In this document: one piece after another, positions 35,483-39,370 of the stretch | Layout of the letters: each line of letters begins with the position of its first letter | Numbering within the stretch: the first letter of the stretch is position 1 | Source: Pseudomonas phage PhiPA3 | Sequence record: HQ630627.1 | Reading direction: 5' to 3' (one strand) | Length of the DNA: 64,000 nt | Made by a program: the position numbers and the translations under genes | Notes under the pieces: generated by a model | The model's input: only the letters and a program-made list of their open reading frames with translations | The model's database searches: none | Told to the model about the DNA's origin: nothing

Positions 35483-35510
35483 GCTGCCTTCGGGCAGCTT
35501 TATGCTGTTT
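35483..35510 (+). terminator. rho-independent terminator (UUCG)
   Basis: gctgcc-ttcg-ggcagc + tttatgctgttt. Confidence 0.65.
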
Positions 35511-35519
35511 AATCAATGT

Positions 35520-35545
35520 AAAGAATTTCAAGGCTATATTACAAC
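35520..35545 (+). promoter_or_regulatory. conserved promoter-like box (copy 3, tttcaaggc-TATATTAC-a)
   Basis: Follows a terminator; 45 nt before ATG 35587. Confidence 0.5.
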
Positions 35546-36089: not shown

Positions 36090-36129
36090 GCCCTCTCCTT
36101 CGGGAGAGGGCGCTATGTCTATTTCTTTG
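36090..36129 (+). terminator. rho-independent terminator (UUCG)
   Basis: gccctctcc-ttcg-ggagagggc + U-rich tail. Confidence 0.7.
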
Positions 36130-36188: not shown

Positions 36189-36713
36189 ATGTCGACAGAA
36201 GAAATCCATCCAGTGGTAAAAAACATCATCTACGAGGCTCTACGCAAAGGGCACGACGCCGTGAGCGCGATGGAGATGTACGAAGGGTTCTTATTGGACC
36301 TGGTCGATAATGGGGTAAAAAGAAAAGGTATGTTGACGGCCTACGCTCAGAGTGGGTTTTTCATCAATATGAAATATCCTAAGACCACGCCACCTATAGC
36401 TCGTTACATTACTCCCACTGGAGAACATTTAGGATTCATCGAGATCTTTACCCCGTATGACAACGTACGCAATAAAAGGCAAGCGGAGGAATACGATCAT
36501 GGAACGCGCTGGTTCACTGTCATGTATGACCGCATCATGTACTTCGGTGCAGATGAGGGTAATTGCCTGACTATTGCTGAAATCAAGAAGACGTATACTG
36601 CATTAAAAGAGGTACCTCCGGATGATTTTATCTGGACGCGTAATGGGTATTTCTTTGATCCAACAGAATCCATTTTCAAACAAGCACTAGGAGAAACTAA
36701 TGAATCTCAGTAA
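36189..36713 (+). CDS. hypothetical protein (174 aa)
   Basis: gtaaggagcagtagATG. Confidence 0.55.
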   Translation: MSTEEIHPVVKNIIYEALRKGHDAVSAMEMYEGFLLDLVDNGVKRKGMLTAYAQSGFFINMKYPKTTPPIARYITPTGEHLGFIEIFTPYDNVRNKRQAEEYDHGTRWFTVMYDRIMYFGADEGNCLTIAEIKKTYTALKEVPPDDFIWTRNGYFFDPTESIFKQALGETNESQ

Positions 36714-37614
36714 AGAAGACATGGGCGTTGTGGTCGCGCACCTGTACGATGCCATCATCAATTGGCGTATTCGCGGGATAAAATTCACCACCGAAGACAT
36801 GGTGCGACTCGGTAAACAGTACAATATCACCAAGCGCAGTATTCTAGACATCATTGCCGGGATGATGCGTTGGGATATGATCAATCGACTGACCGCGGTG
36901 GCCAGTCTTGGTGATAGAGCCGATGCTCTTATTGATGGGACTATTCTTGGCTATTATGCCTTCGTGGCCGAAGATAAGACCATCCGTGATATCCCGCAGT
37001 TGGGATTGGTTCTAAAAGAAGCGCGGGTCACTCGCAGTGAAGAGTGGTACCAGAAAGGCCATCTCGTTGTGGCCATGACCCGTGAAAGCTTGATTTCCAA
37101 CATCGCTGCAACCGTCCAAGTAAAGCGAGCCGATGGAGATTGGCGTTCTAATGACGAATACAGTTCGGGTTTCGCTGACTACGTCACAGCCATCGCGCGC
37201 CGACTCTTTGTCGAGTTTATTGATCGCGGTATTCAGACTAATTGTCAGGATGTAGACCAGCTCATCAAAAGAATGCAGATCATTGGAGCTGTCGACTATA
37301 ACGGTTATTTCGTTAACTTTGACAACAGGAAGTACTTGATTAGCTTCCGGGATAACATTGATATCGATGAGCTGTGCGATTATCAAACCCGTAAAGCTGA
37401 ATACGTACTGGGTCCACAACATGAAGAATGCATCAGTGAACGCGACTTTAAAGCATTTACTGAAACCATGAGTGATATCGGTTTCGTGGTTGCACAGAAC
37501 GACATTTCTTCTTCCCATATGTCGTTCGCGTTGGGCGGTGTATACCCATTGCGTGTTACCGTTCAAGTTATAGGTCTAGAAGAACCTTTTAAGCCTTTCA
37601 TGATCAAGGAGTAA
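36700..37614 (+). CDS. hypothetical protein (304 aa)
   Basis: ORF overlapping the upstream end. Confidence 0.6.
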   Translation: MNLSKEDMGVVVAHLYDAIINWRIRGIKFTTEDMVRLGKQYNITKRSILDIIAGMMRWDMINRLTAVASLGDRADALIDGTILGYYAFVAEDKTIRDIPQLGLVLKEARVTRSEEWYQKGHLVVAMTRESLISNIAATVQVKRADGDWRSNDEYSSGFADYVTAIARRLFVEFIDRGIQTNCQDVDQLIKRMQIIGAVDYNGYFVNFDNRKYLISFRDNIDIDELCDYQTRKAEYVLGPQHEECISERDFKAFTETMSDIGFVVAQNDISSSHMSFALGGVYPLRVTVQVIGLEEPFKPFMIKE

Positions 37615-37617
37615 GTC

Positions 37618-38250
37618 ATGCACCAGGCTATCAATATTGCAAACATGGCGAATCAGGTAAAAGCGATTGTCCGTCAATATCCCACAACACTACACATCGA
37701 TACCAACAACAGCATCAACAAGGCAGCATATTTCTGCGTCAGTGCCTCCAATGCCTTGGGGTTGACTCGTTCGGATAAAACCACTCCGGCGTGGTATCAC
37801 CAATACTGGGCAGTGGAAGTTGGCAAGCTGTTTGGGTTGGCACCGGGGGATCTGACCATTCTGTGGTTGCACGATATCGTGGAAGACACTGGCTGGACTC
37901 ATGAGCAGATCTTCCAGCATTTCAGTGGTTATGTGGCTAAGGGTGTTAAAGCCCTAACCCATGAGAAACCTGAAGGTATGGTTCGTTGTGAGTGGATCGC
38001 GCTATATCACCAGCAATTGGCCGATTCTATCGACACCTATCAGACTATCAAACTGATCGAGTCGATGACTAATCTCTGCACGATTCTGGATGGATCGAAG
38101 AAACAAAAATTTGCTAAGGTATGGTTGGCTGAGCAGGTCCAGCTACATACCAAACTCGTTAAGGCCCATCCGGTTGTACGCGACGTTTATCATCACCTGC
38201 TATCTGAAACCCTGGATCGTTACAACGAACTGGTGAATCAAGCAGCATAA
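37618..38250 (+). CDS. HD-domain phosphohydrolase of the SpoT/Mesh1 type (candidate small alarmone (p)ppGpp/(p)ppApp hydrolase)
   Basis: ILWLHDIVEDTGWTHEQIFQHFSGYV matches the RelA/SpoT hydrolase signature (ALLHDxVEDT...FG); upstream H (WYHQYW) and a downstream KLIESMTNL (KLADRLHN-like) segment. Confidence 0.6.
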   Translation: MHQAINIANMANQVKAIVRQYPTTLHIDTNNSINKAAYFCVSASNALGLTRSDKTTPAWYHQYWAVEVGKLFGLAPGDLTILWLHDIVEDTGWTHEQIFQHFSGYVAKGVKALTHEKPEGMVRCEWIALYHQQLADSIDTYQTIKLIESMTNLCTILDGSKKQKFAKVWLAEQVQLHTKLVKAHPVVRDVYHHLLSETLDRYNELVNQAA

Positions 38251-38257
38251 TGAATAT

Positions 38258-38285
38258 CCCTCCCTTCGGGGAGGGTTTATTCAAT
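38258..38285 (+). terminator. rho-independent terminator (UUCG)
   Basis: ccctccc-ttcg-gggaggg + tttattcaatttt. Confidence 0.7.
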
Positions 38286-38295
38286 TTTCTTTTTT

Positions 38296-38328
38296 AGATT
38301 TAAAGCAATTAAAAGGCTATATTACAAA
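38296..38328 (+). promoter_or_regulatory. conserved promoter-like box (copy 4, tttaaag..aaaaggc-TATATTAC-a)
   Basis: 36 nt upstream of ATG 38361. Confidence 0.5.
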
Positions 38329-38360: not shown

Positions 38361-38699
38361 ATGGACCGCATTAATCTACTCATTACTAACAACAAAGAAC
38401 GCTACGGCGTTCGTTCTCCCTTCACTGACATTGACGTAGTGAAACACCCGGTGGTAAATGTGGCAGTACGCCGTGATAACCGTCTGGTCATTATGGAGCT
38501 GGCGCGCGATAAAGCAGCCAATCTGGTAATTGTGATGGACTTCAAACGTGCTGGTGTACGCAGCGCACTGGATTCCTTCTTACGTGCAATTAATATTCCT
38601 TGCACCTACGACTTGGTCGGTACCTACAATTATAACGGGGCTGAACCGATCGAGCGCACGTTTCGAACCAACCAATACTTGATTCAGGGGGCGGCATGA
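38361..38699 (+). CDS. hypothetical protein (112 aa)
   Basis: ggaaaacggagtttggtATG. Confidence 0.5.
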   Translation: MDRINLLITNNKERYGVRSPFTDIDVVKHPVVNVAVRRDNRLVIMELARDKAANLVIVMDFKRAGVRSALDSFLRAINIPCTYDLVGTYNYNGAEPIERTFRTNQYLIQGAA

Positions 38700-39046
38700 A
38701 ATACCTAGTGCTGATCTGGTTACTACTGTTTGTCGGATGTCAACCGTCGTTTGCTGAACGTGATATCCAGATCACCGATAAATCCTGCCAAGTGGCTGTA
38801 GACATTGCTAAAGTGGCAATGAGCCATTATCGCAAAGGGGCTAATCAATACGACGTAATGTCGGCAGTAAATGGATTCAAGGTAGAAAATAACGAGGAAG
38901 CATACGCTGGTAAAGTGTATGCTCAACTCGCTGTCTTGGATATACAAAAGAACATTCGTCGAGGTTACACCAACACCGATATCCTGAAAGTCTATGTTGA
39001 AAACTGTAAAGGTATTCGGGGTTCCAAATTCGCAAAAGGAAAATAA
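38696..39046 (+). CDS. lipoprotein (116 aa) with a lipobox
   Basis: MKYLVLIWLLLFVGCQPSF: signal peptide plus L-F-V-G-C lipobox; ATGA overlap. Confidence 0.55.
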   Translation: MKYLVLIWLLLFVGCQPSFAERDIQITDKSCQVAVDIAKVAMSHYRKGANQYDVMSAVNGFKVENNEEAYAGKVYAQLAVLDIQKNIRRGYTNTDILKVYVENCKGIRGSKFAKGK

Positions 39047-39205: not shown

Positions 39206-39370
39206 ATGACCCACGAAGAAAAGAAACTAGGTTGGCACGCTGTCCTTGCAGTTGTACTGGTGGGGGCGTTCGTCATCTTTTCAATCTATCATCAGGGTAA
39301 ACGTAAGCAAGAACAATGCGAACGTTATCCGCTCATCTGTAAGTCGGAATCAACCAATGAATCAAAGTGA
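39206..39370 (+). CDS. small single-pass membrane protein (54 aa)
   Basis: aaaggaaactgtaATG; TM segment WHAVLAVVLVGAFVIFSIY then a basic/Cys tail. Confidence 0.35.
   Translation: MTHEEKKLGWHAVLAVVLVGAFVIFSIYHQGKRKQEQCERYPLICKSESTNESK

Follow-up and report, generated by a model that had tools for sequence, protein, structure and literature searches.

PhiPA3 is a 309-kb nucleus-forming jumbo phage of Pseudomonas. We analysed a 64-kb stretch of its DNA (64,000 nucleotides, hereafter the window) with a focus on gp301, the fourth and last gene in a unit that extends from a box at 35535 to an intrinsic terminator (Table 1). A preliminary description of this DNA had claimed an open reading frame here, and the frame is real: it starts with an ATG, no other long frame exists at this place, and a protein search matched its 210-residue product to PhiPA3 "Uncharacterized protein 301" at 100% identity. 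The name given to this protein by NCBI is "metal-dependent phosphohydrolase".

Table 1. Features of the gp301 region. Positions are those of the window; fractions give the number of relatives with the stated residue.
Feature	Position	Strand	Basis or remark
Copies of the TATATTAC box	2538, 21290, 35535, 38318, 39172, 45341	+	window scan
Nearest AT-rich box 5' of gp301, ending in TATATTAC (35535-35542)	35515..35542	+	motif scan
ORF 1 of the unit, 164 aa	35587..36081	+	no family match
9-bp GC hairpin with UUCG loop, without T run, between ORF 1 and ORF 2	36090..36111	+	-23.3 kcal/mol, z -5.2
ORF 2 of the unit, 174 aa	36189..36713	+	no family match
ORF 3 of the unit, gp300, 304 aa, apparently coupled translationally to gp301	36700..37614	+	ORFan
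Shine-Dalgarno sequence AAGGAG of gp301, 6 nt 5' of the ATG	37606..37611	+	sequence reading
gp301 CDS, single-domain RSH-type HD hydrolase (SAH)	37618..38250	+	ORF, homology, fold
HD1, Arg51 (base-stacking arginine position)	37768..37770	+	R in 139/147
HD2, His61 (metal-ligand position)	37798..37800	+	H in 146/147
WLHDIVEDTGWT, with HD3 His85-Asp86 (metal-ligand positions) and HD4 Glu89-Asp90 (catalytic-pair positions)	37864..37899	+	
Glu148 at HD5, where the canonical residue is a metal-binding Asp (KLIESMTN vs KLADxxxN)	38059..38061	+	D in 143/147
HD6, Asn152	38071..38073	+	N in 145/147
Intrinsic terminator, CCCTCCC-UUCG-GGGAGGG followed by a T run	38258..38275	+	-19.9 kcal/mol, z = -4.05

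Transcription unit and flanking genes

The Shine-Dalgarno sequence of gp301 lies directly 5' of the TAA stop codon of gp300 (37612-37614), which implies that translation of the two genes is coupled. The gp301 ATG follows this stop codon by 3 nt, and gp301 is thus left without a promoter of its own. Further upstream, gp300 itself overlaps ORF 2 by 14 nt. At the other end, the terminator combines a 7-bp GC stem, a UUCG loop and a T-rich tail, and ends the transcription unit.

The TATATTAC 8-mer occurs six times in the window where 1.23 copies are expected, and all six copies are intergenic, on the plus strand and 27-45 nt 5' of a start codon. They are embedded in a longer AT-rich box, …TAAA..TTT.AA…cTATATTAC. 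In phiKZ, gp241, gp242, gp246.1 and gp254 are preceded by the identical 8-mer, which we take to be the phiKZ early consensus. Early promoters of jumbo phages are AT-rich and are used by the virion RNA polymerase (PMC7598289; PMC10914365). The TATATTAC box is probably such an early virion-RNA-polymerase promoter of PhiPA3, and the nearest copy 5' of gp301 likely promotes the four-gene unit; gp301 may be expressed early. A sigma-70 promoter scan gave no enrichment (7 found vs 10.3 expected); to our knowledge, phages of the PhiPA3 type do not use the host RNA polymerase.

The preliminary description had placed gp301 between a conserved promoter box and a terminator. The box motif is real and the terminator was confirmed, but the box is not adjacent to the gene: 2.08 kb and three open reading frames separate the copy at 35535-35542 from gp301. 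The copy at 38318-38325, past the terminator, belongs to the gene that follows. Inside the unit, the stable hairpin between ORF 1 and ORF 2 was not called as a terminator in the terminator scan; it may attenuate or stabilise the unit transcript, and its presence makes early read-through to gp301 uncertain. The region as a whole contains three GC-rich hairpins with a UUCG tetraloop, one at 35483-35498 (z -4.3), the one inside the unit, which is the strongest, and the terminator. Directly 3' of the hairpin inside the unit stands a TATG (36114-36117), presumably the minimal phiKZ late-promoter motif; being only 4 nt long, it may occur there by chance.

The three genes that precede gp301 gave no match in Pfam, PHROG or PADLOC, and no linked toxin or synthetase was supported among them. 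A search of 5.8 billion proteins found no match to gp300 other than gp300 itself, and tblastn against 50,697 phage records found no match; a single-sequence AF2 model of gp300 was unusable (pLDDT 36).

Beyond the terminator, a 116-aa ORF (38696-39046, plus strand) starts with MKYLVLIWLLLFVGC, a stretch that resembles a lipoprotein signal peptide and its lipobox. The ORF matches PHROG 15284 (1e-52), is a homologue of phiKZ gp248 and of a PA1C protein, and keeps synteny with the hydrolase gene across PhiPA3, phiKZ and PA1C-type phages. A 54-aa ORF (39206-39370, plus strand) with a single hydrophobic, transmembrane-like stretch, LGWHAVLAVVLVGAFVIFSIY, lies 27 nt 3' of its own TATATTAC box (39172). 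Megablast of the segment 36700-39100 against the 50,697-record phage collection gave no match; the window was recognised as PhiPA3 by the exact protein matches of gp300 and gp301. No tRNA gene was found in the 64-kb window. At the start of the window, an ORF of 329 aa on the minus strand (477-1466) and one of 210 aa on the plus strand (837-1469) overlap almost completely. Only one of them can be a real gene; the remainder of the window is almost wholly coding on the plus strand.

Family membership by sequence and fold

A word-indexed homologue search with gp301 returned gp301 alone, and finding its relatives required an exhaustive HMMER search: among 1.84 billion representatives, this search recovered 354 relatives at E<=1e-3, mostly proteins of 160-230 aa. 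Compared directly with the PDB by phmmer, gp301 matched best the P. aeruginosa enzyme PaSAH (6YVC, 4e-6), followed by SpoT, Rel and MESH1. PHROG 990, "metal-dependent phosphohydrolase", also matches gp301 (1.3e-43); together with the 354 relatives, this takes the similarity well outside what chance would give. TIGR00691 spoT_relA gave a weak match, far under its cut-off, over residues 84-114. On its own, gp301 reached no Pfam family, and HD_4 (PF13328), the RelA/SpoT-type HD domain that 42 of the 44 aligned relatives match, was absent even at E<=10. This absence reflects divergence rather than non-homology, because profile and fold searches recover RSH enzymes only. Indeed, a family profile made from the 44 sequences found nothing but RSH hydrolases in the PDB (1e-31 to 1e-9), with Lmo0812, MESH1, Rel, SpoT and PaSAH at 1e-31 to 1e-21. 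A second profile, built without canonical sequences from the three members of the PhiPA3/PA1C clade described below, likewise found RSH enzymes only, among them S. aureus Rel (6.5e-8), PaSAH (2.8e-7) and SpoT (8e-7).

The predicted structure leads to the same family. AlphaFold2, given an alignment of 80 sequences, modelled gp301 as an all-helical protein of eleven helices (pLDDT 95.7, pTM 0.91). Foldseek against the PDB returned RSH hydrolase domains for all of the top 50 matches, with TM values (normalised to the SAH targets) of 0.75-0.83; the lead matches were PaSAH 6YVC (TM 0.77), Mesh1 (0.83), RelH and SpoT, and complexes of MESH1 with NADPH and with PAPS occurred among the fold matches. 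In a viral structure library, many SAH-like folds of phages matched the model, including those of the jumbo phages 201phi2-1 and Erwinia phage Alexandra.

The generic names given by NCBI and PHROG, together with the lack of a Pfam match for gp301 itself, would suit a generic HD phosphohydrolase of nucleotide metabolism (a dNTP triphosphohydrolase, a 5'-nucleotidase or an HD-GYP cyclic-nucleotide phosphodiesterase) with no link to alarmones. We regard this as extremely unlikely: no non-RSH HD family appeared among the PDB sequence matches or the top 50 Foldseek PDB matches, and gp301 has the Glu-Asp pair (HD4) and the Asn (HD6) that are specific to RSH hydrolases. The dNTPase and HD-GYP families, absent from both sequence and fold matches, were rejected.

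The architecture is that of a small alarmone hydrolase (SAH), with one hydrolase domain and neither synthetase nor regulatory domains. A second RSH-like ORF, synthetase or hydrolase, was not found in the 64-kb window, which makes gp301 a stand-alone SAH and not one half of a toxin-antitoxin pair. We also rejected a type IV toxSAS-antitoxin module with gp301 as the SAH antitoxin: no toxSAS gene is adjacent, and the neighbouring genes match nothing in the three databases named above. All together, sequence, profile and fold all give RSH enzymes, and the SpoT/Mesh1-like HD hydrolase proposed from the first reading of the DNA holds. Homology and fold membership settle that gp301 is a stand-alone single-domain RSH hydrolase, that is, an SAH.

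Catalytic motifs and the Glu148 clade

RSH hydrolases are defined by six catalytic motifs, HD1 to HD6 (PMC9293644), five of which are intact in gp301 (HD1, HD2, HD3, HD4 and HD6). In the HD3/HD4 block, His85 and Asp86 are found in 147 of 147 relatives, Glu89 in 146 and Asp90 in 145, and WLHDIVEDTGWT aligns with LHDTLEDT of PaSAH. This block had been quoted at the outset as the hallmark WLHDIVEDTGWT...FG. Its main part, from W83 to T94, is encoded where expected, but the "FG" is really F102-S-G104. Missing metal ligands, named in the preliminary description as evidence that would speak against its call, were not found: gp301 has His61, His85 and Asp86, and at the position of the fourth ligand it shows a conservative, though non-canonical, change from Asp to Glu. 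Moreover, gp301 keeps Thr155, the equivalent of TtRel T153, beside Arg51 and Asn152. In TtRel, the guanine-contacting residues are R43, N150 and T153, the equivalents of Arg51, Asn152 and Thr155 (PMC10083569). Retention of all three fits a purine alarmone as substrate.

The unusual feature of gp301 is HD5. The motif reads Glu148-Ser149 within an ungapped K145-L-I-E-S-M-T-N152 block, and Ser149 replaces the usual HD5 partner, which is an Arg/Lys or a hydrophobic residue. Among the 147 relatives, Glu at this position is confined to gp301 (P0001) and two other proteins (P0002 and P0003), and occurs in 0 of the 144 others. P0003 is a protein of a PA1C-type phage and shares Glu148 together with other clade-specific changes; P0002 sits on a 1.1-kb contig that offers no gene context. 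The clade has also lost three residues of the loop between HD1 and HD2: the His of the AH..GQ.R motif, present in 140/147 relatives, is Ser44 in gp301, the Gln of the same motif (116/147) is Leu49, and the Tyr of PY..H (140/147) is Ala58. No branch of the family diverges more than the PhiPA3/PA1C clade, whose mean identity to the family core is 24-27%; the corresponding values for phiKZ gp246 and the SSU5 SAH are 32-35%.

We looked for further members of this clade. A scan of IMG/VR with the clade alignment for more proteins with Glu148 gave no true match, and a degenerate DNA pattern for QT.KLIES[LM]TN had no match in IMG/VR. Three matches of this pattern in metagenomes were all due to chance and fell in unrelated genes or in frames that do not code.

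Identity among the three members of the clade is only about 41%, but His61, His85, Asp86, Glu89, Asp90, Glu148 and Asn152 are common to all of them. That the catalytic residues, including Glu148, are kept at this level of identity argues for a working, though remodelled, active site. Glu148 may take part in metal binding. A catalytically weak or dead protein, which would bind and sequester alarmones or another ligand, or bind a host RSH enzyme, might be suspected from the fast evolution of this branch, from the single non-canonical metal ligand and the loss of several near-invariant residues, and from the failure of gp301 to reach the Pfam HD_4 threshold. Such a binder is very unlikely in our view, as Glu is a competent metal ligand and the preservation of the HD2, HD3, HD4 and HD6 residues in so divergent a clade is the pattern of a working site.

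Because the active site of the clade is atypical, the substrate and the rate cannot be assumed for gp301, and judging from the residues either may differ from those of canonical SAHs. The same fold and chemistry could serve a shifted substrate with a 3'-phosphate or pyrophosphate, such as pyrophosphorylated tRNA only, NADPH or PAPS (substrates of metazoan MESH1), pGpp or an unknown defence signal, or could come with a changed metal preference. Glu148 and the losses of His, Gln and Tyr are clade-specific, and every member of the clade has them. The family is also promiscuous, as the complexes of MESH1 with NADPH and PAPS among the fold matches illustrate, and SAHs act on tRNA. In Aph1, two mutations switch the specificity (PMC10083569), and PaSAH is active with a Leu at HD1 (PMC9293644). 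We nevertheless find a shifted substrate doubtful: the reported guanine-contact residues are kept, the lost His, Gln and Tyr lie outside the six defined catalytic motifs, and HD1 is an Arg, not the Asp of the (p)ppApp-specific Aph1. Because Asp is replaced by Glu at HD5 and the HD1-HD2 loop residues are lost with all other catalytic residues kept, one might go further and see in the PhiPA3/PA1C clade a new RSH specificity class, with another metal or with a substrate other than (p)ppGpp (pyrophosphorylated tRNA, or an undescribed Pseudomonas defence nucleotide), a speculation that we consider fairly improbable.

Proposed function and comparison with known enzymes

Our preferred reading, held with moderate confidence and drawn from sequence, the modelled fold and analogy with characterised SAHs, is that gp301 acts as a metal-dependent cytoplasmic 3'-pyrophosphohydrolase on (p)ppGpp and/or (p)ppApp and counters growth arrest and toxSAS toxins. 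In this mechanism, His61, His85, Asp86 and Glu148 would form a divalent-metal site within the all-helical HD fold, Glu89-Asp90 would be the catalytic pair, and Arg51 and Asn152 would hold the purine. During infection of Pseudomonas aeruginosa, the enzyme would work in the host cytoplasm and cleave the 3'-pyrophosphate off (p)ppGpp and/or (p)ppApp; 3'-pyrophosphorylated CCA ends of tRNA are a further possible substrate. It would thereby prevent or reverse the arrest of growth and translation that the stringent response, toxSAS-type defence toxins or (p)ppApp-synthesising toxins bring about, and the relief of arrest would keep the host cell productive for the phage.

Characterised enzymes make such a role plausible. 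The SAHs of SSU5 and PVP-SE1 neutralise all five toxSAS toxins tested (PMC7229694), and PaSAH degrades both alarmone types. The phage phiKZ, which carries an orthologue of gp301, cannot replicate on dormant hosts (PMC10761892), and an SAH thus does not simply override dormancy of the stringent type.

The idea of a phage SAH is not new, and gp301 is one divergent example of it. In 2020, Jimmy et al. assayed stand-alone SAHs of phages and suggested that they serve to bypass alarmone-based defence (PMC7229694); Iyer et al. predicted "HD-alarmone" enzymes, with roles in (p)ppGpp/(p)ppApp and toxSAS biology, for jumbo phages in 2021 (PMC7824862); and a Pseudomonas phage genome paper of 2025 annotates a phage SAH on the same grounds. 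We found no literature specific to gp301 or phiKZ gp246, and papers on phiKZ proteomics and transposon mutagenesis do not mention gp246. What is noteworthy in gp301 is the clade-specific replacement of Asp by Glu at the fourth metal ligand, combined with the loss of His, Gln and Tyr; that these changes alter specificity is a notion to which we give low credence. The Asp to Glu variant would inform enzymologists about the tolerance of the RSH metal site.

More generally, phage alarmone hydrolases are a plausible counter to stringent-response arrest and to abortive infection of the toxSAS/CapRel type. Nucleus-forming jumbo phages shield their DNA and still need host cytoplasmic translation, which is the target of toxSAS/CapRel-type toxins. 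If gp301 or phiKZ gp246 acts in this way, a cytoplasmic anti-defence layer would be added to the biology of these phages.

Among phages, the closest homologues of gp301 are of the PA1C/PS119XW type, and even these are only 39% identical. Both phiKZ gp246 and the PA1C homologue are syntenic counterparts of gp301, with the gp248 homologue one or two genes further on, and phiKZ gp246 and the PA1C/PS119XW-type homologues are, like gp301, each the last gene of their unit. A TATATTAC box follows the SAH gene in phiKZ as in PhiPA3. In contrast, the genes 5' of the SAH gene are not conserved between PhiPA3 and the phiKZ/PA1C-type phages, and phiKZ gp246 differs from gp301 in its sequence (29-32% identity) and in keeping the canonical Asp, His, Gln and Tyr.

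The SAH of Salmonella phage SSU5 (SSU5_099, PaSpo subfamily) is, like gp301, a stand-alone single-domain RSH hydrolase of about 210 aa. The two proteins are 30% identical over 145 aa (pairwise E 3e-13; tblastn match H39). At HD5 the SSU5 enzyme carries the canonical Asp (KLADLLDN), and its AH..GQ.R and Y..H residues are canonical as well, unlike those of gp301. An additional helix of about 30 aa at the N terminus sets gp301 apart. The phages also differ: SSU5 is a temperate, plasmid-like enterobacterial phage, whereas PhiPA3 is a nucleus-forming jumbo phage. In expression work with CapRel and PhRel2, the SSU5 SAH is a routine means of detoxification. Its homology to gp301, and PaSAH as the best match among solved structures, hint indirectly that gp301 may belong to the PaSpo subfamily of the Jimmy et al. 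(2020) classification.

The (p)ppApp-specific hydrolases Aph1 and SAHMex are also HD-fold SAHs tied to phages and toxins. Aph1 (7SMG) is a weaker match, at 1.2e-11 to the family profile and TM 0.76 to the model. Its signature comprises an Asp at HD1 (D24), R119 and others, in a compact protomer of eight helices (PMC10083569). The Arg of gp301 at HD1 argues against this (p)ppApp-only signature, and we rejected gp301 as an Aph1-type enzyme, since HD1 is Arg51 rather than Asp and the model has eleven helices, not eight.

Among solved structures, the best direct match in both sequence and fold is PaSAH (6YVC), the enzyme of the host species. At 25% identity, the sequences give no sign that gp301 was captured recently from this host enzyme, and PaSAH differs at two motifs, with Leu at HD1 where gp301 has Arg51 and Asp at HD5 (KLCDRITN). 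The HD1-HD6 layout and the fold of gp301 (TM 0.76-0.83) are shared by MESH1, which also acts on NADPH, by bacterial RelH SAHs and by the HD domains of Rel and SpoT. Synthetase and regulatory domains, absent from gp301, are found in the long RSHs, and MESH1, RelH, Rel and SpoT all have Asp at HD5, where gp301 has Glu148.
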